From contig CAAFYT010000069.1 in the NCBI GenBank assembly GCA_900767325.1, positions 1 to 45,930 of the forward strand: a DNA stretch of 45,930 bases. The letters are read 5' to 3'. Below, piece by piece: positions 306 through 25,680 of the stretch. Position numbers and translations under genes: made by a program. Origin of the DNA: Kiritimatiellia bacterium (GTDB lineage Bacteria; Verrucomicrobiota; Kiritimatiellia; RFP12; UBA1067). A model generated the notes under the pieces. The model had not been told where the DNA came from and did no database searches. It was given only the letters and a program-made list of their open reading frames with translations. The number at the start of each line of letters is the position of its first letter. The stretch's first letter is position 1.

Positions 306-511
306 GTTCCCATAATTGACGAAGGTGTGTCTTGCGCCTTCCGAGATTAATGTATGACGATACTGAAAACATTGGCTAAAAACGCATTTGGGGTTGCGCG
401 GGGCGAAGTCCCGCGTGTCCTTCGCGTTGCGGTCTGTGGTCGCGGTAGAGTTTTAATTGAAAGTTAAACTGATAAGTAATGAACCACAAAACAAACAAAG
501 GAGAAAAAGCA

Positions 512-9500: not shown

Positions 9501-10750
9501 TGTTCGGCCTCGTGGATAAGGGCGTTGGCTACGATGATTGGAACGCCGACTTCACGATCACGCTCGATCAGGATGTTGCGGCGGGTCAGATCTCGCTCGG
9601 CGGCGCCTATGGCCAGTATGGCCTCATCACGTTCCCGGCTCCAGAATTCAAGGCGGGTGTGCCGCAGAACGTCATGGCGCTCTACGGCGATAAGGTCACC
9701 GTTGCTGAGCTCGATGCCATCAAGCTCTTCGTCTGCGGCATCAAGAACAACACCTTCCCGACCGAGTTCGGTGTTTCGGTGCAGCTCGTCATCTACGATG
9801 GTGAGACGACGATCGACATCGGCGATGCGTTCGAGGCGACGATCCCGGCGGCGAAGGTTCTCCCGACGGCTTCGGTTGCGGCGACCACGCTCGAAGGTCT
9901 CGACACGGCGGCTACCTTCACGCTCGAGAGCAAGGGCATCAACTACGACGACTGGAACGCCGACTTCACGCTCACGCTCGACAAGGATGTCGAGGCGGGT
10001 CAGATCTCGCTTGGCGGAATCTATGGCGAGTATGGCCTCGTCAAGTTCCCGACTCCGGCTCTCACGGCGGGTCAGGCCTATGGCGTTATGGAGCTCTTCG
10101 GTCAGACGATTACCGTTGCCGAGCTTGCCGAGTACGTCAAGGAGTTCACCTGCGGCGTCAAGAACAACACGTTCCTTGAGAACCTCGGCGTCACGGTGCA
10201 GCTCGTGATCACCGATGGTGAGACGACGATCAAAATCGGCGATGCGTTCGAGGCGACGGTTGAAGCGGTTGAGCCGTTCGATCCGGAAGTTCCTCAGACC
10301 TACAATACGCCGGAAGCGGCGCAGGAGGCGGCTGATACGATCAACGACAACAAGCTCACCATGATCAACATCCCGACCGTTGTGACCGACAAGCAGGCCT
10401 ATGTTGACCTCTTCGAGGCGGTCGCCGAGGGAACGACGGTTACGGTGCAGCTCACGGAAGATGCCAAGGGCGAAATCGCGGAAGAGCTCAAGAATGCCGA
10501 TGCGGCGGCGACGATTCTCACGCCGGACGAGGACGGCAAGGCGACCATCATCGCGAAGCCGGGTCTCTGGTACGGCATCAAGGCCGAGGGCTCGCTCTAC
10601 GATATGCCGACTGCCGAGGGTCAGAACTGGGAGCAGGCCACCGATGACACCGTCGCGGTCAAGGTTCCGGTTGTCACCGATTCTGAAGGCAACAAGGCCA
10701 AGGCCGCGTTCTTCCAGGCGACTTGCTCGGCGAAGGCGCCGACCAAGTAA
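512..10750 (+). CDS. Giant secreted/cell-surface protein (3412 aa), adhesin-like with ConA/LamG-like and beta-helix-like modules
   Basis: Uninterrupted ORF that opens at 479. AAGGAG lies 7 nt upstream of ATG 512. Signal peptide MSKLKSLIVATLAFAASFVTGSALA. Two LamG-like domain ends (GVAIFNERLTVDEIAAYEF; LDWLRVYDVELTKEVLERY). Duplicated YDVIVY modules and AKIGxxLYLTLAxA caps, plus three C-terminal tandem repeats. Confidence 0.9.
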   Translation: MSKLKSLIVATLAFAASFVTGSALAATPVAVWSGNFAGAETGVASGKYTLKANGNTVADDGSAITISSNVGVLVDWTDRSDFSTAGNITVIVKYSDYTVGANNGAAATLWAGSATANKDIVGPFTTASTGILNNIWNGAADGRGTKENKVLPASGVFSFDYSGNTAPKGSTTYIENNGTFEEACSGNGTLYTSTKDFYGLAVGGSRNAYNNLKALTGMKILGVAIFNERLTVDEIAAYEFPERKYCVYSQGTASGWGGNCNYNNNLNAIKLPETDAAPAGTKVEVTKLEIAQSPGGNTDDNRPTRIAITVDGKTTTSADFVSGGTIPASGGNNPVKLTYNFPEGCVLTVGTQATIKWLKADGSEITSIRYAASNDATGRFLLVNNGSANYSPIALLYGYALNIRTGKVINFNIQNTGSDGSVSGKGAQTTLIGSMPEASWNNNGSTKMGTISSGIKIYNTNDGTTEDTNMSVGVGNYLSGCGNYAYYGDGGTGTTGNLPNDYYYLHTFQTYRNYGNPDSGIEASNIKLTGIPFEKYDVIVYFNGSYKDGSNEKFHKVNITCNGVSRDYTVDANGAFIAGTADWGATRQVSSAYGVNAAVFTDVATADFELKLAEKYANIAAFQVVERVIPRVTSKATISEDTNWSEIQWDPAVEDFSTTKLELTVENNAKITLDEIVTCVGLAINGVSTFDVAEDLYEDGCWEKQFLSAKSFTSTGTISFGALKEGFYGAFTQTEKGISLRAQNKEVISINIAGGSGGGAGGDSPAANLVSGTGFYGIAPTVGDSWNNINRQWQSGGNQTITIDGPNAYDGKDVIKRETMSLSATGKNTWQAGSISNPFLRGYLDDGSGVTVEVHGVPYTEYDVIVYATSDSASIALAPITINGKQYTFKNGATTEGSDVWGQGLYATPEIGKNALRVNGCTGDTITINAVRTGGRATLCGVQVINKGEVVLKEDFSATITDSIKFSDITWDGGKTFKEGQLNEVVITVGDGTDEEVNLTFDNPDMMLGKITVVSSRPIRFTATKALPNVGQFITDGCTGGIVYAWPVSALTTSAEGVTYAGGAGTVETPATMNFAVANGSMTLKDATYYLGTSYSGVQSTVNMIDATIFANGDMGFGVGQANFNLSGTTKLTSEKVVLSQGGGGRTANLTLSDSAEVIVTGSSIVDSNQSSIMFGHYAGPSTFTIEDSAKFTAEDAQVLVGKTGGDQTININGGVFTAKGIKASAGATGTNALNLNDGELKLGEYGITTYNAARTISVTVDGNAKITSTAAMPITQALTINADKTLTLDATAGDIVISGTVVNNGTIKVVGGNVIFMPGTANGTIVEEGGKALYGYIVSINDCGKFTIPEGKTAENIRLFDGAGNVIPFTDNKDGTVSYEWKITGGACWWDYEFNGNGDNDGTDGRALSWDNDRPFKGDEYVDGEKVHVPTRPWRDVSSWPTTATFVMYGTMPSDDNRYYVVFGSTTHGLCNAIFLATDKVSEDKVVLCKAYGRSGTEEDLTKLCTMTVPNAQTADHLYAFVLKNTDTQTIIDIYLDGELLQSYPFGEIINLGTGFQIASPHGGPVVGYERPDDADEALLDWLRVYDVELTKEVLERYAVLYPYVSPNGSYQRTVTEDADWSATDAWTKEGTEPAETADEPAAGATVKLAIDNDDATTTIAINLADDVIYEAIQINGDDVEFVLAEGEEFGGIAKSTGRVTANANITFAYNAFSMAGAPLTVKQGMTVTFDLSMVDMTKFFSTQTYDLTGYLTLEDGAEVTFIVPEELHGRTAEATIDPVTKHYVLTVTAPNYPFVYEDGVWTWGTQVIDEETINAHPEVLRSIKSDLEMALGTSDYSVENGATLTQTDASATGTITINEGGTFDVNGVIDTALKIVLNGGSLINDGSDIDAGKKQYVSITQTAASTIGGSGEFGYVLSGYGENTLDLGGATLTKMDDNTFSLCNATVQNGTLKVADGVLAIANKAVTIADTATIEGVEGAVLSVGSSISDFTLTGAITLAGAGTFGTITLDDAALDIDTVRGLTVAGEGSIKATITADEMAGGSVVVFTKAEDATISSVTLYDEAGEVLSGYTADYDEDGNYIANFSVTFTVASIDGATAAFDEGYVIGEDDSVTVPYGATATLVYTANEGKLFNDGKTTVTVLIENITDAATAELTIAAAIADKSTVDAEAKIGSTLYLTLADAFAVDGQKYIVLLKDVELTDWIVVDSVAALELNGFTISQSASWAPAETSHDHLFCVTYGGTFSVLNAYEEGGTIDATGNGDLYGAIKMTKKGDVRQGEELASLTVFSGTIIGNTAAISGNGTRHGTSVTIGDDYGSTLIKAVVANDSVGIFNPQDGTVTITGGTIEGAMGIIIKSGSLLMTGGKVVANGEYAEWVKSNNGFNNTGDAIEIDNIGYPGEVAEVLIGGDVIVESANGAAVASRADGAYTPITGFIAGGKFKGAIDTDTSLIKTTETGIGKWVTDEDGYKVPAEDPAMAKIGTKLYLTLAEAVTAATDNDEVTLLASCAGDGIKIDKSITIDFGGFTYTVDASLVGSPSTQSQAFNLVRGNTITLKNGTITSTVARMLVQNYASLTLEDMTLDGTNLAAKDGKGKDYVADTLSNCAGDTVITGDSVIKARVLDGQKSFAFDTYYQAGKYEDATVTVDGATINGNVELAGGSLTLTAGTLNGELVEGANIEKGVVTKDDAFEAAAPAGYEWKDGVLTAIYPAAKVEPTTVDGFDYAFIYTALNDAPKYDDAVASFVITPTTAVPADTIKVGGKFATMGWNIFNLPAIGAGESYTITEATWAEVKDISPFTCGAASIALEKDTEVTLTLKLGDDVIDTQTVTLKAAKVLPTAIVAEAEVTGLDKAATFTLDNKGISYDDWNADFMITLDKDVEAGQITLGGDYGEYGLVTFPAPAFTAGEAQGVMAMIGKTITVAELDEFVQEFTCGIKNNTFPTEFGVSVQLVITDGETTIDIGEPFEATIPAAKVLPEASVTPVTVEGLDKAAMFGLVDKGVGYDDWNADFTITLDQDVAAGQISLGGAYGQYGLITFPAPEFKAGVPQNVMALYGDKVTVAELDAIKLFVCGIKNNTFPTEFGVSVQLVIYDGETTIDIGDAFEATIPAAKVLPTASVAATTLEGLDTAATFTLESKGINYDDWNADFTLTLDKDVEAGQISLGGIYGEYGLVKFPTPALTAGQAYGVMELFGQTITVAELAEYVKEFTCGVKNNTFLENLGVTVQLVITDGETTIKIGDAFEATVEAVEPFDPEVPQTYNTPEAAQEAADTINDNKLTMINIPTVVTDKQAYVDLFEAVAEGTTVTVQLTEDAKGEIAEELKNADAAATILTPDEDGKATIIAKPGLWYGIKAEGSLYDMPTAEGQNWEQATDDTVAVKVPVVTDSEGNKAKAAFFQATCSAKAPTK
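9017..10261 (+). repeat. Three in-frame tandem repeats of 138-139 aa (417/414/414 nt) inside the giant gene
   Basis: Each unit starts GCGGCGAAGGTTCTCCC (AAKVLP...) at 9017, 9434 and 9848. Each contains DDWNADF...GQI(T/S)LGG.YG.YGL..FP...FTCG(I/V)KNNTF...VQLVI.DGETTI.IG. A degenerate fourth copy precedes them at about 8650-9016. Confidence 0.9.
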
Positions 10751-10931: not shown

Positions 10932-11852
10932 ATGAAGTCTGGAAAGCCCTTTCAATCGGTTCTTGAGCCGTATGCAGCGGAAATAAAAGAACTCGTCCAG
11001 AGCGGAATGAGTGTTCGAGCGCTCGCCGCCGAAATCAAAGCCCGACACGATATTTCAATCTCGCACAACTCCATTGCCTCGTTCATTCGCACTCATTCTT
11101 TGCGAAGGCGAAGCTTCTTGGATGGTGTGCGCCCGGAGCACCGTGCGGAACTTTTAGGGGCGATTCGGGCGCAATGGACGCATGACTCCACCGCCATTGA
11201 AGGCAATACGCTGTCTTTGGGCGATACGATGATTCTTCTCAAGTATGGCCTTACCGTAAATGGCAAGCCGCTCAAAGATCACCAAGATGTCATCAACCAC
11301 GCAAATGGTGTTGATTTGGTTTTGCGTTTGACGGAAAAAGACGCGATTGACGAGCAAGATCTTTTTGATTTGCACAAGTTGGTCATGGCATCTGCCGACT
11401 TCGATATTTACAAGCCAATTGGCGCTTGGAAGCGCGAGGACAATGGTACCTATGGAGTGGTTAACGGAAAGAGCGTTTATATGGCGTATGCTCCCGCAGA
11501 CGAGACGCCGAAGTTGATGCGTGAGTGGTTGAAGAGGTTTAATTGTTATTTAAGTCGTCCGCTTAGCGAACAGGATGCGCTCGATGCCTACATCAAATCG
11601 CATCTCGAATTTGTGCGCATTCATCCGTTTTTCGATGGTAACGGTCGTATGGCGCGTCTGCTTGCCAATTTGCCGGTGTTGCGCGCAGGATACCCGCCGA
11701 TTGTCGTTCCAATGGAACGGCGGAGCGAGTATATTCGCGCGTTGTGGGACTATCAGCACACAGGAGATTCGGGGTTTCTTGCATCCTTCCGCAAGTTACT
11801 TGCCGATTCCTGGCAACTCACATTACGCCTCGTACACGAACGCGAAAATTGA
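10932..11852 (+). CDS. Fic/DOC family protein with an N-terminal HTH-like segment and an intrinsic inhibitory motif
   Basis: Fic motif HPFFDGNGRMAR at 11622-11657. Inhibitory (S/T)xxxE(G/N) motif STAIEGN at 11187-11207. N-terminus SGMSVRALAAEIKARHDISISHNSIASFIR resembles a resolvase-type HTH. Confidence 0.85.
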   Translation: MKSGKPFQSVLEPYAAEIKELVQSGMSVRALAAEIKARHDISISHNSIASFIRTHSLRRRSFLDGVRPEHRAELLGAIRAQWTHDSTAIEGNTLSLGDTMILLKYGLTVNGKPLKDHQDVINHANGVDLVLRLTEKDAIDEQDLFDLHKLVMASADFDIYKPIGAWKREDNGTYGVVNGKSVYMAYAPADETPKLMREWLKRFNCYLSRPLSEQDALDAYIKSHLEFVRIHPFFDGNGRMARLLANLPVLRAGYPPIVVPMERRSEYIRALWDYQHTGDSGFLASFRKLLADSWQLTLRLVHEREN

Positions 11853-11932
11853 GATAAGAGGTCTTGTTTCATTTTCAACTGCCGCACTTAGGTTTAGGAT
11901 AAATAGAAGGATCGCTTGTTCCAATTTTGACA

Positions 11933-11954
11933 AAACGGGAATCGATTCCCGTTT
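11933..11954. promoter_or_regulatory. Perfect 22-bp palindrome AAACGGGAATCGATTCCCGTTT (operator and/or fic terminator hairpin)
   Basis: Perfect dyad followed by GGTATT. A third half-site AAACGGGAAT lies at 11965-11974. The same CAAAACGGGAA word recurs at 13194-13204. Confidence 0.5.
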
Positions 11955-11997
11955 GGTATTGTAAAAACGGGAATTGTGTGCTACAATACGCAACAAC

Positions 11998-13143
11998 ATG
12001 GAGTATATAGCACGAAAAATTGAGTCGCAAATTGTCAGACGCCTTTCGTCTGGCAAAATAAATGTCGTATATGGTCCGCGGCAAAGCGGGAAAACGACAA
12101 TGGTCAAACATCTGGTTGAGGAGCAGAAGCTAAATGCACTTTGGCTTGACGCCGATTTGCTGGATGTGCGCGAGTTGCTGGTAAACATGTCTCCTGAGAA
12201 ATGGAGCTCAATCATTGGCGGTCACGATACCTTGGTTATCGATGAGGCGCAACGAGTCGAGGGGATTGGACTTGCGTTGAAGATTCTCGTTGATCACATC
12301 AAGGGTGTCAAGGTTGTGGTCACTGGTTCCAGCGCGCTCGATCTTCGCAATCGTTTGGACGAACCGCTGACGGGTCGTGCGTTTTCGTATGTTTTGCTGC
12401 CGCCGTCGTTTTGCGAGTTGGCGGATGCGGGTGATTCTCTTTCGGAGGCGCGCGCGTTGGAGCAGCGACTGGTTTACGGATCCTATCCCGGGGTTTTGGC
12501 GGATCGGGAAGATCGTGATTTCACGCTGATGTCGCTTGCTTCCAGTTATCTCTACAAAGACGTTCTCATCGTCGATGGTATCGCCAAATCTGCGGTGTTG
12601 GACAAGTTGGTTCGTGCACTTGCCTTTCAAATCGGGCAGGAAGTATCGTATCAGGAGCTTGGCGAGCTTGTCGGAGTGGATCGAAAGACGGCGGAGAAAT
12701 ACGTTGATTTGTTGAAGAAGTGTTTTGTCGTGTTCGAGCTTCCCGCCTATGCGAGAAACTTGCGCAATGAAATAAAAAAGTCGCGCAAAATCTATTTCCA
12801 CGACCTTGGCATCCGCAACGCCGCCATCGGCAATCTTTTGCCGCTTTCGTCGCGTGCGCAAGAGGAAGTTGGGCATCTTTGGGAGAATTACCTCATTGCC
12901 GAGCGATACAAGTTGAATGTAAACGCAACGATTCCGCCGAGAATGTTCTTTTGGCGTACGAAGGCGCAACAGGAGGTAGATTATCTGGAGGAATGTGCAG
13001 AGGGGCTTTTCGCGTGGGAAATGAAGTGGAATGCGAAAAAGGCGATTGGGGAATTGCCGTTGGCGTTTAGGAAGTCTTATCCGGAGGCGCGCACGGGATT
13101 CGTCTCGCCAGCAAACGCGAGAGATTTTCTGACCTTGCCGTAA
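11998..13143 (+). CDS. AAA+ ATPase with a DUF4143-like C-terminal region
   Basis: Walker A GPRQSGKTT and Walker B-like LVIDEAQ. The overall layout is typical of the AAA_14/DUF4143 family. ATG 11998 is preferred over the TTG at 11974 because TGcTACAAT lies at 11979-11987. Confidence 0.8.
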   Translation: MEYIARKIESQIVRRLSSGKINVVYGPRQSGKTTMVKHLVEEQKLNALWLDADLLDVRELLVNMSPEKWSSIIGGHDTLVIDEAQRVEGIGLALKILVDHIKGVKVVVTGSSALDLRNRLDEPLTGRAFSYVLLPPSFCELADAGDSLSEARALEQRLVYGSYPGVLADREDRDFTLMSLASSYLYKDVLIVDGIAKSAVLDKLVRALAFQIGQEVSYQELGELVGVDRKTAEKYVDLLKKCFVVFELPAYARNLRNEIKKSRKIYFHDLGIRNAAIGNLLPLSSRAQEEVGHLWENYLIAERYKLNVNATIPPRMFFWRTKAQQEVDYLEECAEGLFAWEMKWNAKKAIGELPLAFRKSYPEARTGFVSPANARDFLTLP

Positions 13144-13227: not shown

Positions 13228-16044
13228 ATGAGAAAAATCGCGATGGTGGTATTGTGCGGGCTCATGGCCTTTGGTGCGTTCGCCGGAGAGGTTACCGTCG
13301 TCAAGACGTTGGACGAGTTTGCGGCCGCGCTGACGAATAAGAGCGTTACGGAAGTGCAAATCCCCTTTGGCGTGGATATCGCCATTCCGAGCGGCAAGAA
13401 GCTGACCGTCCCCGTCGCAAAGTCCGTGACGGTCGATGGACGGCTTTTGGTTATTGGTTCGCTTGTGAACAATGGCGCTGTCGCTGGCTCGGGTTCCTAC
13501 GCGACCGCCTTTACCAAGATCGTGCAAGGCGCGGTCGTTACGCCGACGAATGCCTTTGCGAGCTACCCTGCCTTCAGGTATCGCACAACGAAAACGACCT
13601 CGGTTATCGGGTCGCTTACCGGAAACAAGCCCACGTGCGCGAAGGCGCCGAAGGTCTGTTTCATCGAGGGCTTGGAGAAGTATGTCGAATCGAAGGTCTC
13701 CTCGCCGGCTGCTGCCGTTTGCACGGTCGATTCGTCGACCGCGCTCAACTCCTATGTCTCTATCGACAGCGTGCACGAGAAGCTCGCCGAGGCATTCCAC
13801 GCGGCCTATCCGAATCCGACAGCGACTCCGCCGGCGAACAAGTTCGTCGTTCTGCTGAAGGGCAGCCAATCGATCGACCAGGCCGCCCTGAGCGCGCTCA
13901 ATCCCGCTTGGACGACCGAAAAGGGTCACATCGGAAAGGGCTTTCGCGTCGATTGCCTGGCCTATGCGTTCACGATCAAGAGCCCAGTTGCGAATTCCAC
14001 GGTCTATCTCGTCAACGGCACGACGATTTCGCACGGCACGAACACCGCCTATACGAATTGGAGCACGGAATACATTATCGGCTGCACGACGAAGGCGAGT
14101 GTCGCCATTAACTGCAATTCGGCAAGCGCAACGAGCCGCGTTGAGCTTTACGACTGCAAGGACTTCGCAACGGCCAACCAGGGCTCGGCCGACTTGACTT
14201 TGAACAACAAGGGCTATTATGTCTTCACCGGCGGACCTTACACCATTCCGGAGAAAACGCTCAACCTCAGGGTCGTCGGCGGTTCCTACACGACCGATCC
14301 GACGGCACTTTGTCCGGCGGGCTACGTCGGGGAGTTCGATGGCGCGAATTACGAGGTCGTCAAGAAGAGCGTGGACTACAGCTTCTTCATCGGCGACGAG
14401 GGAGTCGAGGCGAATCGGTTCGCCACGCTTGCGGACGCGGTTCAGGCGGCGAATGGGGCAACGATCAAGCTCGCGAAGGACGCGGCGGTATCGTCCGATC
14501 TGATCGTTGGCGCGAAGGCGGTTGTCGATCTCAACGGCTTCCGGCTTTCGGGCCCCGGCGAGATCGTCGTTGCCGCCGCGGGCGATCTTACGCTTGTCGA
14601 TTCGTCCATCTACAAGGGCGCGACCGGCACGTGCGCGAACGCAATCGACGTTGCCGGCTCGCTGACGATTGCCTACGGCGCGTATTCCGGCGCGATTCGG
14701 CTGAGGGCCGGTTCGGCGGCAACGACTTACGCCGGCTCCTTCGCGCTCGCGTTCGCCATCGATCCGGGCGCGACGGCTGCTTTCAGGGGCGGCAGATTCC
14801 CGCTGTCAGTCGGGCCCTATCTCGGCGAGGGCTATCAGGAGATGAAGATCGGCTCGCAGTATTGCGTCGGGCGCAGACTTTTCGGCACGCTCACGAAGAA
14901 AGGCGGCTCCAACACGAAGGACGAGGACTTCGATGTCCGCTACGTCGGCGATTCGGCGCTTTACGAGAGCTACTTGGCGCAGCCCGCGTTCGATTCGGAT
15001 TCGGCGGCGTTCTTCGCTCACGCCGAGGCGGACTCGGCGATTTCGCCGCTCGGGAGTTTCACGATCGACGTCATCGTCAACTTCGATCGAGACATGGGCT
15101 CCAATACGCTGAAGTTCTACTACACGATCTTCGGCACGCTCTTGCCGGTGGAAATTCCGGCGAAAACGGAATATCGCCTCTTCTACCATATCATGAAGGA
15201 TTATCTCGCCGAGCTCGGCGGCTCGCAGATCCAGCTGTCGCGCTTTTTGGGGAGCGAGTTCAATAATGCTCTGCCGATTGGGATTGGCAACGAAACGAGC
15301 GCACCCGAAAACATCGGCGCGATTTGCGACATCGAGATCTGCCTCTACAACGGCAACTCCAAGGTCGTTTCGCTCGGCAAGACCAAGGTTACGCTGGGCG
15401 CGCGGGCGAATGTCGCGTACATCACGAGAAACGGCTCGCCGAAGTTCCATTCCGCGCTTTCGCTCGCGGTTCAGGCGGCGGCGGAAGGCGAGACGATCGT
15501 CTTGGCCCGCGAGAGCGCGGAGGGCGTGACGGTCGCCAAGGCGATCACGATCGACACCAAGGGCTTCGCGGTCGATGGCGTTGTCGCGGGCAAGGGATAT
15601 TCGGCTCGGGTCGAGGGCGAGAGGATCGTCTTCGCGAAGAGCGATTGGCCGGAGGAATGGGCGGATATTCCGGCGGATGACGCGGTCAAGGCGAGGTTCG
15701 CCGGGTGGCGCGCGGAGAAGGGCGCAGGAGCCGACCTCACGACGGACTCCGCCAAGCAGGCGTTCCTTCTGGACGTTGCCGCCGATGCGCCGATACCGGC
15801 GCTGAGGGTCGAGAAGATCGCGGCTGCGGAAGGCGTTGCGGAGATCGCGGTCAGCGCCGCCGGAGCCGATCTCGGGCGAATCAATGGCGTTTTCTTCGCC
15901 GAGGCGGGCGAAACGCCGGGCGAACTCAAGCCGCTGGCGCTTTCGGAAAAAGAGGTGGACTATGTCGCGGGCAAGGCGATCGTGACGTTCGTCTCCGGGC
16001 GGTTCTTCAGGGCCGCAATCGGCTTTACCGGGGCGCATCCCTGA
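13228..16044 (+). CDS. Secreted surface protein (938 aa) of unknown function
   Basis: Signal peptide MRKIAMVVLCGLMAFGAFAGE. It shares cap-like modules with the giant protein (RFATLADAVQAANGATIKLAKD...DLNGFRLSG; FHSALSLAVQAAAEGETIVLAR...DTKGFAVDG). High GC3 throughout. Confidence 0.85.
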   Translation: MRKIAMVVLCGLMAFGAFAGEVTVVKTLDEFAAALTNKSVTEVQIPFGVDIAIPSGKKLTVPVAKSVTVDGRLLVIGSLVNNGAVAGSGSYATAFTKIVQGAVVTPTNAFASYPAFRYRTTKTTSVIGSLTGNKPTCAKAPKVCFIEGLEKYVESKVSSPAAAVCTVDSSTALNSYVSIDSVHEKLAEAFHAAYPNPTATPPANKFVVLLKGSQSIDQAALSALNPAWTTEKGHIGKGFRVDCLAYAFTIKSPVANSTVYLVNGTTISHGTNTAYTNWSTEYIIGCTTKASVAINCNSASATSRVELYDCKDFATANQGSADLTLNNKGYYVFTGGPYTIPEKTLNLRVVGGSYTTDPTALCPAGYVGEFDGANYEVVKKSVDYSFFIGDEGVEANRFATLADAVQAANGATIKLAKDAAVSSDLIVGAKAVVDLNGFRLSGPGEIVVAAAGDLTLVDSSIYKGATGTCANAIDVAGSLTIAYGAYSGAIRLRAGSAATTYAGSFALAFAIDPGATAAFRGGRFPLSVGPYLGEGYQEMKIGSQYCVGRRLFGTLTKKGGSNTKDEDFDVRYVGDSALYESYLAQPAFDSDSAAFFAHAEADSAISPLGSFTIDVIVNFDRDMGSNTLKFYYTIFGTLLPVEIPAKTEYRLFYHIMKDYLAELGGSQIQLSRFLGSEFNNALPIGIGNETSAPENIGAICDIEICLYNGNSKVVSLGKTKVTLGARANVAYITRNGSPKFHSALSLAVQAAAEGETIVLARESAEGVTVAKAITIDTKGFAVDGVVAGKGYSARVEGERIVFAKSDWPEEWADIPADDAVKARFAGWRAEKGAGADLTTDSAKQAFLLDVAADAPIPALRVEKIAAAEGVAEIAVSAAGADLGRINGVFFAEAGETPGELKPLALSEKEVDYVAGKAIVTFVSGRFFRAAIGFTGAHP

Positions 16045-17191
16045 TCTTCGGCGAAGTGGGCGTCTGGGATGCGGCTTTGTCCAGCTGGAGGCGAAGGGCG
16101 TGGTCGCGGTAGAGCTGCAGGAGCCCCTGGATCGCGAGGCCGTTCTGCGCGTAGAGACGCGATGGATTGTGGTCGTGGCCGAACATGCGGCTCGCCATGA
16201 CGCGAACCGGGCGGGAGATGTCTTCGGGGGGCAGCCAATCCGGAATCGATGCGATGCGTTCCTCGGCGAGGGCGAAGGGCACGATGACGTTGCAGAGAAT
16301 GGCCGCCGCGCGGCCGCGCCCCATGTAATGCCGACCGCAAATGGCGGCGATCAGTCGGCGACACGCGCCCTTGGAGAAATCGGCGAGATCGATGGCCTCG
16401 ATCATGGGCGTTGACGTGAAGATGTGGGCGGCGTCGACTAGCCGTTTCTTCGGCAGATTGCTGGGGCGGCAGCTTTCGTAGTCCCAATCCTCGAATCCAC
16501 CGGCCGCGAGCAGGGCCTCTTCGGCGATCTTTGCGTTTCGCAGCAGGCAGGCGAGCGGCACGCGTTCGGAGACATGGCGAAACTGGGCGGAGTTCTTCTT
16601 GTAGCCGAGAGCGGTCATGACCTCTTCGTAGAAGACCTGTCGGCGCATGTTCCGTCGCGCACCCAGCCGCCCCAGGATGCGCCGCGCCTTCATCCGCAAC
16701 CGATGCTTGCCGGCCAATTGGAGCAGGCGGCGCGCGGCCTCGGGGTCGCCTGCGGTCAGCTCCGTTCGCGTACGCTCCGCGTCCGAGATGTGCGCGTAGG
16801 GATAGGCGGTCAGGTCGATCTGCTCCGGCGCGAATGCGCTCTTCGATTGCATGAAACGGCCCAGCCAGAGCGAAATCGCCTCGGGCGGGAGCGTCTTGGG
16901 AGCCGGGCCATCGTGCCAGGTCACATGGGCGATCACGTTCCGATAGCGCGGATCGGAGCCGTGCCGATGGAAGTCCCAATCGGCGGGGCAGAGGTGTATT
17001 TCGACATCGCCGACGCGTCGCCTGCCGCCGATCTCCAGAACGGCGTCCCTGAAATCAGGGCCTGCCTCAAGATTCCATTCGCCGGGGGTTATGACCTTTA
17101 CCTCGACCTCCTGCGGCGTGTAGAGCTTCGCCGGACGAAGGGCGTTGTCAAACCAGATTGCCTGGATGTGTCGTTCAGTCAGAGTTTTCAT
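16025..17191 (-). CDS. DUF2851 family protein
   Basis: MKTLTERHIQAIWFDNA...GEWNLEAGPDFRDAVLEIGG...GDVEIHLCPADWDFHRHGSDPRY matches the DUF2851 N-terminal signature as I recall it. The ATG at 17191 overlaps the recA-like stop region by 17 nt. Confidence 0.7.
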   Translation of the reverse strand: MKTLTERHIQAIWFDNALRPAKLYTPQEVEVKVITPGEWNLEAGPDFRDAVLEIGGRRRVGDVEIHLCPADWDFHRHGSDPRYRNVIAHVTWHDGPAPKTLPPEAISLWLGRFMQSKSAFAPEQIDLTAYPYAHISDAERTRTELTAGDPEAARRLLQLAGKHRLRMKARRILGRLGARRNMRRQVFYEEVMTALGYKKNSAQFRHVSERVPLACLLRNAKIAEEALLAAGGFEDWDYESCRPSNLPKKRLVDAAHIFTSTPMIEAIDLADFSKGACRRLIAAICGRHYMGRGRAAAILCNVIVPFALAEERIASIPDWLPPEDISRPVRVMASRMFGHDHNPSRLYAQNGLAIQGLLQLYRDHALRLQLDKAASQTPTSPKIRDAPR

Positions 17192-18095
17192 GGTGGGTGG
17201 TTTCGCGCGGAATGCCGCAGGAATAGAGGAGATCGAACTCGGCGTCCGCAAGGGCGGGTTGGGGCTCGGCCCTGCCGGAGGTTCCGGCCCTGCCGGCGGC
17301 TCCGGCCCTGCCGGCGGAAGTGTTCTTCACCACGCGGACGCGGGTGCGATTGCCGATGATGACGCCGGATGGAGCGCTGATCATTCCGATGCGCTGGACC
17401 TGCAGCCGACAGGCGGCGCGGAGCTTCAGGGCCTTGCCGCCGGGCGTCATTTCGGGGTTGCCGGCCAGCGCGCCGATCCGATCCCTCACCTGGTTGAGGA
17501 AAATGCAGAGCGTGTTGGATTTCGCCAGGGCCGAGGCGATCCTCCGCAACGCCTGCGACAGGATGCGCGCCTGCAAGCCGCTGGCAGGGTCGAAACCATC
17601 GATTTCGGCCTGCGGCGTGAGCGCGGCAACGGAATCGACCACGATGACGTCGACCGCACCGGATTTCGCCATCCGCTCGCAGATCGTAAGGGCTTCCTCG
17701 GCGCTGGTTGGCTGCGCGACGATGAGGTCGTCGAGATCCACGCCGATGCGTTTCGCATAGGCGGGGTCGAGAGCGTGCTCCACATCGATGTAGACGCTGG
17801 CTCCGGCCCTGCCGGTGGTTCCGGCCCTGCCGGCGGCTCCGAGCTGCTGTGCGGAGGCGATCACGCCGAGGGCGAGAGTGGTCTTGCCCGAGGATTCGTG
17901 GCCGAAGAACTCGACGATCCGCCCCCTCGGCAGTCCGCCGCTACCGAGGGCCTTGTCCAGCGGCCGGCATCCCGTGGGAATGACCTTTGGCGATTTCCTG
18001 AACGAGTCGCCCAGGTGGCCAATGGACGAGTTGCCGAATTCGCGCCGGATGAAGCCGAGCACTTCGTCGAGCGTCATGGCGAGCCGGGGGATCAT
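17175..18095 (-). CDS. recA: RecA-family recombinase core (306 aa) lacking the C-terminal domain, with two in-frame repeat insertions
   Basis: Collinear with E. coli RecA: GRIVEFFGHESSGKTTLAL, YIDVEHALDP, SGAVDVIVVDSVAALTPQAEI, NQVRDRIGALAGNPEMTPGGKALKL, TRVRVVKN. It ends about 15 aa after AEFDLLY. ATG 18095 forms an ATGA overlap with the yraN stop; an alternative ATG lies at 18077. Confidence 0.8.
   Translation of the reverse strand: MIPRLAMTLDEVLGFIRREFGNSSIGHLGDSFRKSPKVIPTGCRPLDKALGSGGLPRGRIVEFFGHESSGKTTLALGVIASAQQLGAAGRAGTTGRAGASVYIDVEHALDPAYAKRIGVDLDDLIVAQPTSAEEALTICERMAKSGAVDVIVVDSVAALTPQAEIDGFDPASGLQARILSQALRRIASALAKSNTLCIFLNQVRDRIGALAGNPEMTPGGKALKLRAACRLQVQRIGMISAPSGVIIGNRTRVRVVKNTSAGRAGAAGRAGTSGRAEPQPALADAEFDLLYSCGIPRETTHHENSD
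17263..17321. repeat. 18-nt tandem repeat GGCCCTGCCGGNGGNTCC x3 inside the recA-like gene
   Basis: Units at 17268-17285, 17286-17303 and 17304-17321. They encode SAGRAG-AAGRAG-TSGRAE, inserted where RecA has KNKIAAPFKQAEF. Confidence 0.9.
17799..17840. repeat. The same 18-nt unit x2 at a second site in the recA-like gene
   Basis: Units at 17805-17822 and 17823-17840. They encode AAGRAG-TTGRAG, inserted between AQQLG and SVYIDVEHALDP, where E. coli has REGKTCAFID. Confidence 0.9.
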
Positions 18096-18535
18096 GACTG
18101 CTCCCAGTGGACGAAACGATCGGGCATCGCGAACAGGCGCACATTGCGGATGTGGTCGATGACGGGGCTCCCGTTCTCCGGAACGCCATGGATCTCCACG
18201 ACGTCGAACCTGATCGCTCCGAGCCACCTGTTGATGCGCCGCCAGGCGTTGCAGGCCCGCAGGAGGTTCTTGCGTTTCTGGCGCGTGATGCTTCGCAGGC
18301 GGTGCGCGTATTGCGAGAAGGAGGCGTGCTGCTTGACCTCGATGAAGACCATCGTATCGCGCGGACGATCCCAGGCGATGATGTCGATCTCCAGGCGGTT
18401 GTCCCTTTCGCACGGGCGGGAGTTGCGCTCGATTATCTCGTAGCCGTGGCAACGGAGGTAGTCCGTTGCCACGCGTTCGCCCCATTTGCCGTGGGCGACG
18501 CCGATGTTTTCGGCCTTGTGCGGGCGAAGCGTCAT
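18092..18535 (-). CDS. yraN: YraN family (UPF0102) PD-(D/E)xK endonuclease-like protein
   Basis: GERVATDYLRCHGYEIIERN...EIDIIAWD...MVFIEVK is the characteristic YraN core. ATGA overlaps occur at both ends (18532-18535 and 18092-18095). Confidence 0.8.
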   Translation of the reverse strand: MTLRPHKAENIGVAHGKWGERVATDYLRCHGYEIIERNSRPCERDNRLEIDIIAWDRPRDTMVFIEVKQHASFSQYAHRLRSITRQKRKNLLRACNAWRRINRWLGAIRFDVVEIHGVPENGSPVIDHIRNVRLFAMPDRFVHWEQS

Positions 18536-19107
18536 TCGGCGGCCTCGGCTTCGCGTGCGGTGCGTTCGGGGCTCCGCTTTTCGATCAGCATGGGGATGCC
18601 GAAGCAGACGATGGAGATGGAGCCGGATATCGCCTCGCAGAGTCCGAGGGCTTCGGTCGGGCTGAACAAGATGTGCGAGAAGCGGTCCTCGCTGCCGTCC
18701 GTGGAGGTTCGGCGAAGCTCCAGCGAGTAGCCGGAATCCATGTTGGCGCAATGGTGCAGCTTGATGTGGGTCGTTGTGCGCGGGGTTCTGTGGAAGAGTC
18801 CCTTGCCGTCGTTGATCGCCTCGCATTCTCCCCGCAGAACCTGGAGGATGCCGCACAAGTCGATGAAGTTGAGCTTGACGCAGATCGCGTGCTCCCAGTC
18901 GAAGCGCGGGAACGTCGGGTTGGGGGCGTTGCGGTTGCCGATCGTCAGCTGGTTGGCGACGTTCATCATGATCGAGCCGTCGCTCGAGTCGTGCGCGGGG
19001 TGGAGAGTCAGTTGCACGGCGCAACCGGTTCCCTTGCCGTTGGCATGGTAGAACGACAGACTCGGGCGATACGTTCCGATGCGGGAGGTGTCGGGTTTTT
19101 TCTGCAT
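18532..19107 (-). CDS. Hypothetical 191-aa protein, possibly a Whirly/PUR-alpha-like ssDNA-binding fold
   Basis: ATG 19107 with a purine-rich RBS. Two successive four-strand-plus-helix patterns. FDWEHAICVKLNFIDLCGILQVL and RFSHILFSPTEALGLCEAISG resemble the Whirly segments DWSRKQVFSLSVTEIGTLVSL and IPITKAEFAVLISAFNF. The fold call is inference only. Confidence 0.6.
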   Translation of the reverse strand: MQKKPDTSRIGTYRPSLSFYHANGKGTGCAVQLTLHPAHDSSDGSIMMNVANQLTIGNRNAPNPTFPRFDWEHAICVKLNFIDLCGILQVLRGECEAINDGKGLFHRTPRTTTHIKLHHCANMDSGYSLELRRTSTDGSEDRFSHILFSPTEALGLCEAISGSISIVCFGIPMLIEKRSPERTAREAEAAE

Positions 19108-19154
19108 GGTGGGGTTTCCTTTCGTTTTGTCTGTTTGTTTTTGTTCGGGACGAG

Positions 19155-20705
19155 TCAAACCCAGAAGGAGTTTTCCTCGCCATCGAGTTTGCGATAGGCC
19201 AGAGCGCCGAAGATGTGCTCGTCGCGCACGGATTCGGATTCGGCGAGGTCGGCGAGCGTTCGCGCGACGCGGAGCACCTTGTCGTAGGCGCGGGCGGAGA
19301 GGTTGAGGCGTTCGATCATCCGGACGAGCCGCGAGCAGTCGGCTGCGGTGAAGCGGCAGGCGTCGGGCAGGTCGCGGCTTCTGACCTCGGCGTTGGTGTG
19401 AACGCCGGAAAGGCCTTTGTAGCGCGCGCTCTGGCGGGCGCGGGCGGCGAGCACGCGTTCGCGTATGGTGCGGCTGTCTTCGCCCCTTGCCATGACCGGC
19501 AACCGCTCGACCTCGACCGGAGGAACCTCGATCTGGATGTCGATTCGGTCGAGCAGCGGGCCCGAGACGCGGCTTTGGTACTTGATGATGGCGCTCATCG
19601 GGCAGCGGCAGGAGTGGCGGCGGTCGTTGTAGTAGCCGCAGGGACAGGGGTTCATGGCCGCGACCAGCATGAACTTGGAGGGGAAGTCGTAGGCGGCGGC
19701 GGCGCGCGACACGGCAACATGGCCGTCTTCGAGCGGCTGGCGCAGAACCTCGAGCGCGGCGCGCGGAAACTCCGCGAATTCGTCGAGGAAGAGAACTCCG
19801 CGATGCGCGAGCGAGACTTCTCCCGGCACGGGACGCGAGCCACCGCCCAGGAGGGCGATGGAGCTTACCGTGTGGTGCGGGGCGCGGAATGGACGCTTCC
19901 TGACGAAGCCCTCCACGCCTTTCGAGAGCCCGGCGACCGAATGGATGCGGGAGACCTCGATCGCCTCGTCGACGCTCAGCGGGGGGAGAATGGAGGGAAT
20001 GCGGCGCGCGAGCATCGTCTTGCCGGAGCCGGGCGAACCGATCATCAGGATGTTGTGGCCTCCCGCGACGGCGACCTCGATCGCCTTGCGCGCGTCGGTC
20101 TGGCCCTTGATGTCCGCGAAATCGTCCGCGAAATCGTCCGCGCCATCGATCAGGGCGCCGAGATCGGTGAAGCGCGGTTCGATCGTGCATTCGCCATTGA
20201 GGAACATCACCGCCTCCTGCAAGGTGCCGACGGGAATCACGTCGATGCCGGAAACGACGCTTGCCTCGCGTGCGTTTTCACACGGCACGAGGATGGCCCG
20301 CTTGCCGATGCGGCGCATTTCGAGGACCATCGGCAGAACGCCGTGGACCTTTCGGACCTCGCCGGAGAGCGCGAGCTCGCCGACCAGGGCGAATTCGTCC
20401 AGATGCTCGTTGCGGATGCGCCCGGTTGCCTTCAGGAGACTGACGGCGATCGGCAGGTCGAAACTCGGACCTTCCTTCTTCAGGTCCGCCGGGGCGAGGT
20501 TGACGGTGATGTCATATTCCATCTTCCTGGCGGCGAGGCCCTGATTCCGGAGTGCGGTCGGGATGCGATCCTTCGCCTCCTTCACCGCCGCATCGGGGAG
20601 ACCGACGATAGCGAACTGACTGACGCCGATGGAGGAATTGACCTCGATCTCGACTGCACGCGCCTCCACGCCGTAGATCGCGGCGGAATAGCATTTTGCC
20701 AACAT
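19155..20705 (-). CDS. comM: YifB/ComM family Mg-chelatase-like AAA+ ATPase
   Basis: N-terminus MLAKCYSAAIYGVEARAVEIEV. Walker A GSPGSGKTM and Walker B VLFLDEF. C-terminal region RAYDKVLRVARTLADL. AAGGAG RBS before ATG 20705. Confidence 0.9.
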   Translation of the reverse strand: MLAKCYSAAIYGVEARAVEIEVNSSIGVSQFAIVGLPDAAVKEAKDRIPTALRNQGLAARKMEYDITVNLAPADLKKEGPSFDLPIAVSLLKATGRIRNEHLDEFALVGELALSGEVRKVHGVLPMVLEMRRIGKRAILVPCENAREASVVSGIDVIPVGTLQEAVMFLNGECTIEPRFTDLGALIDGADDFADDFADIKGQTDARKAIEVAVAGGHNILMIGSPGSGKTMLARRIPSILPPLSVDEAIEVSRIHSVAGLSKGVEGFVRKRPFRAPHHTVSSIALLGGGSRPVPGEVSLAHRGVLFLDEFAEFPRAALEVLRQPLEDGHVAVSRAAAAYDFPSKFMLVAAMNPCPCGYYNDRRHSCRCPMSAIIKYQSRVSGPLLDRIDIQIEVPPVEVERLPVMARGEDSRTIRERVLAARARQSARYKGLSGVHTNAEVRSRDLPDACRFTAADCSRLVRMIERLNLSARAYDKVLRVARTLADLAESESVRDEHIFGALAYRKLDGEENSFWV

Positions 20706-20765
20706 GTTCCAAGCTCCTTTCCGTTCCTTCGGGGAACGCGGAACAGTATGGCATTTTTCCTAAGG

Positions 20766-20857
20766 GCGTGGCGTGAAGACGGCGTGAGTTTTGCGTGTGT
20801 TTTTCTTCACGCCGTCTTCACGCGCGCTTCACGCCGTCTTCACGCGCGCTTCACGCC
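20766..20857. promoter_or_regulatory. 11-bp-phased array: GCGTG x3 (20771, 20782, 20793) then CACGC x5 (20808, 20819, 20830, 20841, 20852)
   Basis: 22-nt unit CTTCACGCCGTCTTCACGCGCG x2.4 at 20805-20857, with an inverted copy at 20771-20788. It sits between the response-regulator stop (20858) and a TGcCATACT -10 (20745-20753, minus strand) upstream of comM. Confidence 0.75.
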
Positions 20858-21538
20858 TTACTTGACGAGGTAGTAACCCGCGCCGATGACGTTGACGATC
20901 ATCTCGCCGGCCTTGCCAAGCTTTCGGCGCAGGTTTTTCATGTGGGTTCTGAGCGAACTGACTTCGCCAACGTAGCCCTCGCCATGCAAGGCGGCGAAGA
21001 GGGTTTCAAGCGGAACGATTTCGCCGCGCTTTGCGTTGAGCGAGCGGATGAGACAGGTTTCGTGAGCCGTGAGCTGTTCTTTGCGGGAGCCCTCGACAAC
21101 CATCCGCGAATCGAGATCGATTGTCACCGCGCCGAGTACGATGCGGCTGGAGGAGGAGATTCGGGGCGGAATGGAACTTGCGCGAGCGAGTGCGCGGCGG
21201 ATGCGCGCGATGAGAACGGAGTTGTCGGCCGTCTTCGAGATGTAGTCATCCGCGCCGAGGCCGATGCCGCGAACTTCGTCGGCATCGGAGGTAAGGGCGG
21301 TCAGGAAGATGATCGGAACGTCTCGGTCGATCTTTCGCATCTTCTCGCAGGCGCAGAAGCCGTTCGTGCGCGGCATCATCACGTCCATGAGAACGAGATC
21401 CGGGCGGCTTTCGGAGAACTTGACGAGCGCCTCTTCGCCATTTCGGGCGGTCGTTACGCCGTAGCCCTCGCCCGTGAGGAGGGTGCGCAGCGCGGTGCGG
21501 ATCGCCGATTCGTCCTCGACTACGAGAATCGTTCGCAT
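20858..21538 (-). CDS. OmpR/PhoB-family response regulator
   Basis: Receiver domain MRTILVVEDE...DLVLMDVMMP...ADDYISK. Winged-helix output LTAHETCLIRSL...SSLRTHMKNLRRKL...GAGYYL. Confidence 0.9.
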   Translation of the reverse strand: MRTILVVEDESAIRTALRTLLTGEGYGVTTARNGEEALVKFSESRPDLVLMDVMMPRTNGFCACEKMRKIDRDVPIIFLTALTSDADEVRGIGLGADDYISKTADNSVLIARIRRALARASSIPPRISSSSRIVLGAVTIDLDSRMVVEGSRKEQLTAHETCLIRSLNAKRGEIVPLETLFAALHGEGYVGEVSSLRTHMKNLRRKLGKAGEMIVNVIGAGYYLVK

Positions 21539-21542
21539 CGCG

Positions 21543-24858: not shown

Positions 24859-25680
24859 ATGACCAAGAAGCAGGCGAAAGGGAAATTGGCGACGAAGGCG
24901 AAGCCGAAGCCGAAGGTGAAGGGGAAGGACGTGGTGAGGTCGAAGGCGAAGCCGAAGTCGAAGGGAGTGACGAAATCGAAGGCGAAGCCGAAGGTGACAG
25001 GAAAGCCGAAGCCGAAGGCGAAGGTCGCGGCGAAGAAGCCGACGGTAAAGAAGCCGACGGTGAAGGCGGAGGAGAAGAAGCTCGCCAATCGCGTTCCTCC
25101 GCGCATCGAGAAGCGCCTTTCGGAGGGGGATATTCGGCCGCCCGAGGAGTACGTTCCGGTTGATACGGCGAAGGCGGTGGCGTTCGGGATGTCGATCGTG
25201 CAGGAGATGAAGCGGACGGTGGCGCGTGCGGATGCGGTGCGTGCGGCGAAGGCGGCGAAGGAGGCGGAGGAGATTCGCCTTGGGTCGCGGCCGACGTCGC
25301 GGGATCGCAAGAAGTCCACGCTGCGGTTCTCGTCGGCAGACCTCAAGGAGTTCAAGAAGCTGCTCGTCGAGGCGCGAGTGCATGCGTCGAGGAACGTGGC
25401 GTCGATCCGTTCCGTTGGTTTCAGCGAGACGGATGACCACGAAGCGGACGGCGGAGACGGTACGGCGCAGACGCTGCGGTTGCAGGCGTTGGGGCAGGTC
25501 GGCACGATCAACCGCACGATCCAGCAGATCGACGAGGCGTTGCATCGCATCAGCGATGGGACGTATGGCGTGTGCGCGTCGTGCGGGCAGCTCATCCGCA
25601 AGAAGCGGCTTCTGAACCAGCCGTTCGTTCTGACGTGCATGGAGTGCCAACAGGCGATGGAGAGCGAGCCGCGCACGTGA
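24859..25680 (+). CDS. DksA/TraR-family C4 zinc-finger protein with a Lys/Pro-rich (histone H1-like) N-terminal tail
   Basis: Zinc finger CASCGQLIRKKRLLNQPFVLTCMEC. The first ~75 aa are KAKPKPKVKGK...KKPTVKKPTVK. GGAAGGAGG RBS. Confidence 0.85.
   Translation: MTKKQAKGKLATKAKPKPKVKGKDVVRSKAKPKSKGVTKSKAKPKVTGKPKPKAKVAAKKPTVKKPTVKAEEKKLANRVPPRIEKRLSEGDIRPPEEYVPVDTAKAVAFGMSIVQEMKRTVARADAVRAAKAAKEAEEIRLGSRPTSRDRKKSTLRFSSADLKEFKKLLVEARVHASRNVASIRSVGFSETDDHEADGGDGTAQTLRLQALGQVGTINRTIQQIDEALHRISDGTYGVCASCGQLIRKKRLLNQPFVLTCMECQQAMESEPRT

Follow-up and report, generated by a model that had tools for sequence, protein, structure and literature searches.

A conserved Kiritimatiellia operon that joins a predicted Whirly-fold protein and DUF2851 to comM, yraN and recA

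Background

What function is served by a compact gene cluster in which the helicase ComM, the nuclease YraN and a RecA recombinase are encoded together with two proteins of no assigned role? The question is raised by a locus in a 45,930-nt stretch of DNA from a Kiritimatiellia bacterium (GenBank assembly GCA_900767325.1, contig CAAFYT010000069.1, positions 1 to 45,930 of the forward strand), referred to here as the window. The contig is chromosomal, and the bacterium is uncultured and belongs to gut or rumen-type metagenomes. It seems fairly probable that the cluster is the chromosomal unit with which Kiritimatiellia carry out the recombination step of natural transformation or, in a wider sense, process the displacement loop (D-loop) in homologous recombination.

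Part of such a system has been described. A 2024–26 preprint (Hardy et al., bioRxiv 10.1101/2024.02.06.579203) reports that Legionella, Acinetobacter and Vibrio need YraN for natural transformation. YraN is described there as a PD-(D/E)xK endonuclease for single-stranded DNA (ssDNA) which co-evolves and interacts with ComM; together they mature the D-loop made by RecA, and the displaced strand is nicked. YraN cuts any ssDNA and needs to be targeted, and the final resolution of the D-loop is left unexplained. A Whirly-like protein and DUF2851 are both unmentioned in the preprint (10.1101/2024.02.06.579203). Since it describes the ComM/YraN pair on RecA-made D-loops, the core of the operon is already known. 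What appears to be new is the constant insertion of a Whirly-fold gene between comM and yraN, the recurrent DUF2851 partner, a promoter with phased repeats and the repeated decay of recA. The first-pass annotation had proposed a dedicated, undescribed module; a conserved, tightly packed recombination or ssDNA unit is indeed present, but it is not wholly undescribed, because ComM/YraN has been reported.

Results

The five genes

The operon consists of the following genes.

19155 to 20705, minus strand: comM, 516 aa, the gene that opens the operon, encoding a hexameric AAA+/MCM-type helicase (YifB/ComM)
18532 to 19107, minus strand: gene of the 191-aa Whirly-fold protein, predicted ssDNA binder
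18092 to 18535, minus strand: yraN (UPF0102, PD-(D/E)xK ssDNA endonuclease), 147 aa
17175 to 18095, minus strand: recA allele, truncated and divergent, 306 aa, reduced to the ATPase core
16025 to 17191, minus strand: DUF2851 gene, 388 aa, last gene of the operon

The five minus-strand genes and their junctions, as given by the first-pass annotation, were reproduced from the sequence and the list of open reading frames (ORFs). A 47-nt gap (19154 to 19108) separates the comM stop from the start of the Whirly-fold gene. The stop of the Whirly-fold gene and the start of yraN share the ATGA at 18535-18532, yraN and recA meet in an ATGA at 18095-18092, and the recA stop overlaps the DUF2851 start by 17 nt (17191 to 17175). 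Matches to TIGR00368, PF02021, PF11013 and PF00154 bear out the earlier identification of comM, yraN, DUF2851 and the RecA core.

ComM scores 581 bits against TIGR00368 (cutoff 362; residues 6-505), which places it in the ComM/YifB family, and has the three-domain architecture of PF13541 (ChlI), PF01078 (Mg_chelatase) and PF13335 (Mg_chelatase_C). Its median identity to 45 relatives is 72.6%, compared with 72.2% among the relatives themselves, and one of 180 residues that are invariant in the clade is altered in the window. YraN belongs to PF02021 (70.9 bits, gathering score 23.6), with all NCBIfam sub-models scoring under their cutoffs. The PD-(D/E)xK catalytic residues D51 and E66-V-K68 are present and conserved in the alignment, the median identity to relatives is 60.7% (60.0% among relatives), and none of 26 clade-invariant residues is altered. 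The corresponding values for the Whirly-fold gene are 55.5%, 55.4% and 0 of 23. Since the constraint on all three genes is normal, the comparison argues that comM, the Whirly-fold gene and yraN are functional in the window lineage.

Within comM, a perfect 12-nt tandem repeat (20112-20142, 2.6 copies) encodes DDFADDFAD. The repeat falls in the linker that connects the N-terminal Lon-like domain to the AAA+ domain.

The Whirly-fold protein

The 191-aa protein gave nothing significant in Pfam, NCBIfam, PHROGs, PADLOC or PDB sequence profiles. An AlphaFold (AF2) model from 36 homologues has a predicted local distance difference test (pLDDT) score of 85 and two beta-beta-beta-beta-alpha repeats, which corresponds to a predicted Whirly fold. 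When the model was compared with PDB using Foldseek, the top 23 matches were all Whirly-fold structures (E 6e-7 to 1e-3; template modelling (TM) score 0.55-0.72), namely T. brucei MRP1/MRP2, Arabidopsis WHY1-3 and potato StWhy2/PBF-2, with Pur-alpha next. The earlier label of "Whirly-like" therefore stands at the level of the fold, from the model and the PDB fold search. The window protein has no match to the Pfam Whirly model (PF08536). Two distant family members match it below the threshold (E 1.3e-3 and 7e-3; 16.6-19 bits compared with 23), and a broad family profile searched against all PDB sequences found only MRP1 (E 0.027) and StWhy2.

An exhaustive HMMER search returned 595 cluster representatives of the family at 50% identity. 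Acidic C-terminal tips that resemble the tip of SSB occur in five of the 150 best representatives (P0299, P0302, P0342, P0348 and P0370), which end in ...(L/M/V)PF, e.g. DDEELPF. The bacterial SSB tip that these distant tails resemble is protein-recruiting. P0419 (locus L071), a member of the acidic-tip group, has yraN and ruvC downstream. The literature searched contained no stand-alone bacterial Whirly-fold protein tied to recombination; bacterial Whirly-type domains have been described at the N-terminus of Shedu nucleases. Tentatively, the 191-aa protein may be the founding member of a so far unrecognised bacterial family of ssDNA-binding proteins with a Whirly fold (about 600 clusters, no Pfam model). 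This family would be a dedicated partner of YraN and, with DUF2851, a missing component of the ComM/YraN D-loop system of natural transformation. This model-based proposal is put forward as possible rather than probable. Whirly-type folds, usually called plant-specific, would then form a sizeable stand-alone bacterial and phage family.

Whirly-fold homologues are also present on five IMG/VR contigs. Those on phage-like contigs (L061, 3219-9213; L057, 6890-10148) are 40-48% identical, and the L057 homologue adjoins a gene for a PcfJ-like protein. The neighbours in the IMG/VR loci L057-L060 gave almost no Pfam or PHROG matches. A tblastn search of two family members against the deposited phages and plasmids of INPHARED and PLSDB gave no match, and several distant family members lie on contigs too short to show their context.

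The Shedu protein, in which a PD-(D/E)xK nuclease carries a fused sPC4/Whirly-fold domain, and the homologues on the five IMG/VR contigs would fit a mobile-element or anti-phage defence module in which a Whirly sensor is paired with such a nuclease in the manner of Shedu type 1A. However, PADLOC gave only weak generic P-loop matches for the five proteins (at most 21.7 bits) and did not assign them to a defence system. The locus is chromosomal, lies among housekeeping genes at the same place in every species of the clade, and is not atypical in composition for the window. A defence function is considered extremely improbable.

Conservation of the gene order

Linkage was surveyed with one genome per GTDB species, giving 44 loci in which six-frame ORFs were searched with the window proteins. 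Where a class label is given, it is Kiritimatiellia or Kiritimatiellae. The remaining labels are uncultured bacterium, Verrucomicrobia and Lentisphaerae, and three loci are in bins named for unrelated taxa; since the operon is the same in these loci, such labels are attributed to misassignment or to contamination of the bins.

The order comM–Whirly–yraN is found in every one of the 44 species loci with enough flank. The next gene is recA in most loci, followed by DUF2851 in about two thirds. The full five-gene order is present in 22 loci, and in further loci this order is interrupted by an insertion or contains a recA that is frameshifted or degenerate. An unrelated gene follows recA in 8 loci, DUF2851 directly follows yraN in three loci that lack recA (L044, L045 and L048), and in L031 DUF2851 lies upstream, ahead of comM. 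Between the Whirly gene and yraN there is an overlap of 4 nt in the window, compared with 17 nt in three relatives. The genes flanking the operon vary between loci. The arrangement is neither due to chance nor unique to one strain, since the genes keep this co-directional order in 44 species-level genomes whose flanks differ. The co-occurrence and adjacency of comM and yraN are observed in these 44 species; the interaction of ComM with YraN is taken from the literature.

The linkage extends to more distant and rearranged loci. A distant Kiritimatiellae genome (L066/L067) has the order Whirly–DUF2851–comM–comEC–yraN, with a Whirly protein that is about 35% identical. In L064, Whirly–yraN stands alone without comM. 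L071, also without comM, has a response regulator, a Whirly gene with an SSB-like tip, yraN, YiiD_C and RuvC. On the phage-like IMG/VR contig L061 the order is yraN–Whirly–GP88, after which come genes for an exonuclease and a RecT-type annealing protein. Because the linkage survives rearrangement and deep divergence in these loci, Whirly–YraN is the most stable pair. The gene-neighbourhood check suggested with the first-pass annotation thus connects both of its unknown proteins to comM and yraN across lineages, even where the gene order has changed.

The same data bear on whether the order is simply inherited synteny of unrelated housekeeping genes, with the Whirly-fold protein and DUF2851 unconnected to ComM, YraN and RecA. 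The loci of the main type all belong to one class, so that common descent by itself could have preserved the order; 8 species lack DUF2851 at the locus and 3 lack recA, and the DUF2851 of Akkermansia is in an unrelated context. However, rearranged loci (L066, L031) keep the linkage, as do loci with 35-40% protein identity, the Whirly–yraN overlap is conserved, the pair is found on a phage-like contig, and the same promoter module is ahead of whichever gene is first. Since the linkage survives rearrangement, pure synteny is very unlikely to be the explanation.

The recA allele

The first-pass annotation had regarded a shortened RecA as a design feature of the module. This was not upheld, since relatives have a full-length canonical RecA at the same position (315-341 aa, with RecA_C; TIGR02012 493-508 bits) and some lineages have no recA in the operon. 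The window RecA matches the ATPase core PF00154 with 286 bits and has no RecA_C domain (PF21096). Its score against TIGR02012 is 294.9 bits (model positions 6-248 of 321), which is under the equivalog cutoff of 325.3. The protein ends right after the ATPase core, and the alignment indicates a clean deletion that joins recA to the start region of DUF2851. The truncated allele is real, because an identical protein is found in three independent assemblies.

Walker A (GHESSGKT), Walker B and the glutamate equivalent to E96 are retained. Loop L1 has a deletion of two residues, loop L2 has V209A and F211A, and the equivalent of K250 is Thr. The median identity of the window recA to relatives is 64.7%, compared with 84.8% among relatives (minimum 72.7%), and 25 of 147 clade-invariant residues are altered, compared with at most 5 in any other species. 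The altered positions include the equivalents of E. coli F203 in loop L2, K250 and F217/Y218 at the subunit interface. Judged from the alignment, the window recA has lost constraint on the DNA-binding loops and the subunit interface, alone among the five genes.

The gene also contains two repeat arrays, found with Tandem Repeats Finder (TRF) and other methods.

17798 to 17841, minus strand: 18-nt array 1 in recA, 2.4 copies, after the Walker-A helix (TRF, motif search and alignment)
17263 to 17317, minus strand: 18-nt array 2 in recA, 3.1 copies, directly after the VVKN motif (TRF and motif search)

Both arrays share the 18-nt unit GCCGGCAGGGCCGGAnCC, which is in frame and encodes (A/T)xGRAG hexapeptides. 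The arrays are 519 nt (173 codons) apart, and the unit occurs nowhere else in the 46-kb window and in no relative's locus. A strain variant from a fourth assembly (P0429, L070) has the same truncation with one hexapeptide fewer per array; because the copy number differs, the arrays behave as variable-number repeats. Recombination between the two arrays would delete the ATPase core in frame. P0430 was considered as a closer full-length RecA relative and was dropped, as an internal duplication makes its sequence uninformative.

The recA position is damaged in other lineages as well. L020 (3053-3856) and L031 (7831-8544) have ORF-intact RecA-like remnants without Walker A (TIGR02012 140 and 74 bits), L047 (6203-7203) has a frameshifted recA, and L044, L045 and L048 have the operon without recA. 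In all of these six loci, comM–Whirly–yraN is intact. Since the slot holds remnants, a frameshift or nothing in other lineages, the short RecA of the window is best taken as one instance of repeated decay, or possibly of re-purposing. Such decay beside constrained neighbours is unusual, as RecA is otherwise nearly universal.

Selection for a functional mini-recombinase, lacking the C-terminal domain and tuned for ssDNA integration, would be consistent with an ORF that is intact in four assemblies and two strain variants, with the retained Walker A, Walker B and E96-equivalent residues, and with the ORF-intact RecA-like remnants at the same position in L020 and L031. The pN/pS ratio between the two strains is 0.44 for recA, which is below 1 (0.16 for DUF2851), but these values are based on only 9 substitutions each. 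However, the close relatives all have full-length RecA, the altered invariant residues far exceed those of any other species, the array copy number varies between strains, and the loss of Walker A in L020 and L031 and the frameshift in L047 give a pattern that fits repeated decay. A selected mini-recombinase is therefore judged unlikely. The sequence comparison indicates that the window recA is most likely a lineage-specific, truncated and fast-evolving copy that is decaying or re-purposed, and not an essential element of the design.

DUF2851

DUF2851 scores 125.6 bits against PF11013 (threshold 25) and belongs to that family; the best-matching stretch spans positions 1-216 of the 375-position profile. 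The median identity to relatives is 56.1%, compared with 60.9% among relatives, and 5 of 79 clade-invariant residues are altered, which is mild next to recA. The C-terminus of the window protein (16028-16100) lacks the HPDCxxC motif that is nearly invariant in relatives.

An AF2 model of DUF2851 (pLDDT 81) has no significant match among PDB folds, the best being the MjOgg glycosylase (E 0.25). Its N-terminal alpha-beta-beta-beta-alpha-beta unit carries the invariant residues E6, D46, D62, E64 and H66. The motifs E6, GPD46F and D62-x-E64-x-H66 suggest that the protein is possibly a metal-dependent nuclease. A PD-(D/E)xK assignment was not favoured by the profile of the N-terminal domain against PDB sequences or by hhalign against the YraN alignment (probability 0.2). 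No function is assigned to DUF2851 in the literature searched.

The 3' end of the DUF2851 gene overlaps a convergent gene for a 938-aa adhesin-like protein (13228-16044, plus strand) by 20 nt (16025-16044). There is no room for a terminator between the two genes because of this overlap.

Promoter, leader and regulator region

Two features lie directly upstream of the operon.

20706 to 20860, minus strand: promoter/leader region upstream of comM
20858 to 21541, minus strand: OmpR/PhoB-type response regulator gene (Response_reg and Trans_reg_C), directly upstream of comM

Five GTGAAG hexamers with an exact spacing of 11 nt lie upstream of comM (20805-20859). An inverted GTGAAG copy results in a perfect 17-bp inverted repeat or hairpin (20771-20787 / 20807-20823; fold z = -6.1). 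An extended -10-like element, TGCCATACT, is located at 20753-20745, with the consensus TGnCATA(A/C)T across loci. The comM leader has a Shine-Dalgarno (SD) sequence, GGAAAGGAG, at about 20722-20714, and a leader hairpin of 6-7 bp (20738-20733 / 20727-20722) just upstream of the SD GGAAAGG. A scan for consensus promoters and terminators gave nothing useful, and no Rfam families or tRNAs were found in the window.

The same promoter architecture precedes the operon in relatives, whichever gene lies upstream. The hexamer sequence is lineage-specific: CTTAAG is the commonest, and CGTAAC, GCAACG, TCAAGA and TGAGACA also occur. At least three exact hexamer copies in the 11-nt register are present in 26 of the 44 loci, a number reached by none of 200 shuffles per locus. 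Loci with the promoter module include L003, L006, L014, L016, L030, L034, L042, L044-L046, L064 and L071; in the last two it directly precedes the Whirly gene.

In alignment A11 of 30 loci, the leader hairpin, which was specified by hand, is 80% paired, compared with 45-61% for slid controls. It shows 24 double-sided changes, a count reached by none of 500 shuffles. RNAalifold predicted no structure on the leader alignment. An outer leader stem (20706-20744 region) seems to pair the 5' end of the transcript with the segment before the ATG.

The 11-nt-spaced repeats in place of a -35 box resemble activator sites of the pho-box type. The OmpR/PhoB-type regulator gene has no adjoining histidine kinase gene. 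A homologous regulator is directly upstream of comM in 12 of 46 loci and directly upstream of the Whirly gene in L071.

Surrounding genes

The neighbours of the operon are ordinary and include, apart from the regulator, a GreA-like protein, topoisomerase subunits, a GH2 glycosidase and adhesin-like proteins. A giant ORF of 3423 aa (479-10750) is probably surface adhesin-like and contains a 414-nt tandem repeat (2.9 copies, 9065-10258). The stretch at 10932-13143, with a gene of the Fic/DOC family and another for an AAA_14/DUF4143 ATPase, has a G+C content of 0.49-0.51 compared with about 0.62 around it and is perhaps a small acquired island. A long imperfect array of the hexanucleotide CGAAGG (24872-25024, about 22 copies) with superperiods of 36 and 48 nt lies close behind the 3' side of the GreA-like gene.

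Discussion

Proposed function

The roles of three of the proteins can be drawn from the literature. RecA would pair the incoming ssDNA with the chromosome and form a D-loop, the hexameric helicase ComM would extend it, and YraN, the ssDNA endonuclease that interacts with ComM, would nick the displaced strand. The predicted Whirly-fold protein may bind ssDNA and act stoichiometrically with YraN. It could direct or restrain the otherwise unspecific cleavage by YraN, for example by presenting the displaced strand to it; it could coat the displaced strand or coat and shield the incoming strand, or serve as an SSB-like platform for the pathway. DUF2851 would be an additional conserved accessory factor in processing. 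The operon would be expressed from its own promoter, in which the 11-nt-spaced hexamers replace the -35 box, and is probably activated by the upstream OmpR-type regulator. The ComM/YraN-RecA core is a known system; beyond the linkage and the fold, the whole of this mechanism is inferred.

Several points weigh against this proposal. The Kiritimatiellia system is described from its gene content, by analogy with other species that were studied experimentally. No comEC, dprA, comEA or pilus genes were seen in the window, where only some of the neighbours are annotated. The binding of ssDNA by the Whirly-fold protein is argued from a predicted fold and sub-threshold sequence links, and the Whirly-fold proteins of the Kiritimatiellia operons have no SSB-like tip, their tails ending in VAA or AAA. 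A nuclease function of DUF2851 is without fold or profile support, and the regulator adjoins comM in only 12 of 46 loci. Should the genome have no recA other than the decaying copy, it would be harder to argue for a RecA-dependent role of the well-conserved neighbours.

The operon could also serve general recombinational repair or the rescue of replication forks rather than transformation. ComM would then be a branch-migration motor, YraN a structure-processing nuclease and the Whirly-fold protein an SSB-like protector, all acting with a housekeeping RecA. The canonical operon recA of the relatives, the uptake genes not seen in the window and the Whirly–yraN pair beside ruvC in L071 are consistent with such a role, as is the role of plant Whirly proteins in organelle genome maintenance (PMC3245945). 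However, ComM and YraN are transformation-specific in the three species tested (10.1101/2024.02.06.579203), and comEC, which encodes the DNA-import channel, is inside the L066/L067 operon. A repair function is plausible but rather unlikely, and the recombination step of transformation, or D-loop processing more generally, remains the favoured function.

If the proposal is correct, the Whirly-fold protein (coupled to yraN) and DUF2851 are two testable candidates for the targeting of YraN and the resolution of the D-loop. The former could keep YraN off the incoming strand or target it to the displaced one. A first functional context would follow for DUF2851 and for a family without a Pfam model, and the functional pairing of Whirly and RecA in plant organelles would extend to bacteria.

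Comparison with known systems

The predicted fold of the window protein is like that of plant Whirly proteins (StWhy2/PBF-2, AtWHY1-3) and trypanosome MRP1/MRP2 (TM 0.55-0.72); these are modulators of recombination or annealing that bind single-stranded nucleic acid. The window protein has a GKGTG motif at the position of the Whirly KGKAAL motif region. Unlike these proteins, it is bacterial and has no significant sequence similarity to them. The predicted coating or hand-over of ssDNA beside RecA is reminiscent of SsbB and DprA, and the acidic ...PF tips of some family members of the SSB tip; however, the predicted fold is Whirly rather than OB or Rossmann-like, and the Kiritimatiellia members are tipless.

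Shedu type 1A likewise combines a Whirly-type ssDNA-binding module with a PD-(D/E)xK nuclease. In the window, by contrast, each is encoded by a gene of its own; the two genes are translationally coupled and belong to a housekeeping recombination operon, with no DUF4263 domain or defence context. The window RecA, an ATPase core without the C-terminal domain, is similar to reduced members of the RecA family such as archaeal RadB, ImuA and C-terminally truncated RecA mutants, and the remnants in L020 and L031 are similar to inactive, ImuA-like cores. Unlike an old paralogue family, the window RecA is 65% identical to the canonical RecA of sister species and arose recently by deletion.

The closest likeness is to the ComM/YraN D-loop system, including the ComM of Vibrio and Acinetobacter. 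The window comM and yraN are intact, constrained, co-directional and by appearance co-transcribed, recA is adjacent, and comEC is in the same operon of a related lineage (L066/L067). The window operon differs from this system in the Whirly-fold gene that it adds between comM and yraN and, in most of its relatives, in the addition of DUF2851.

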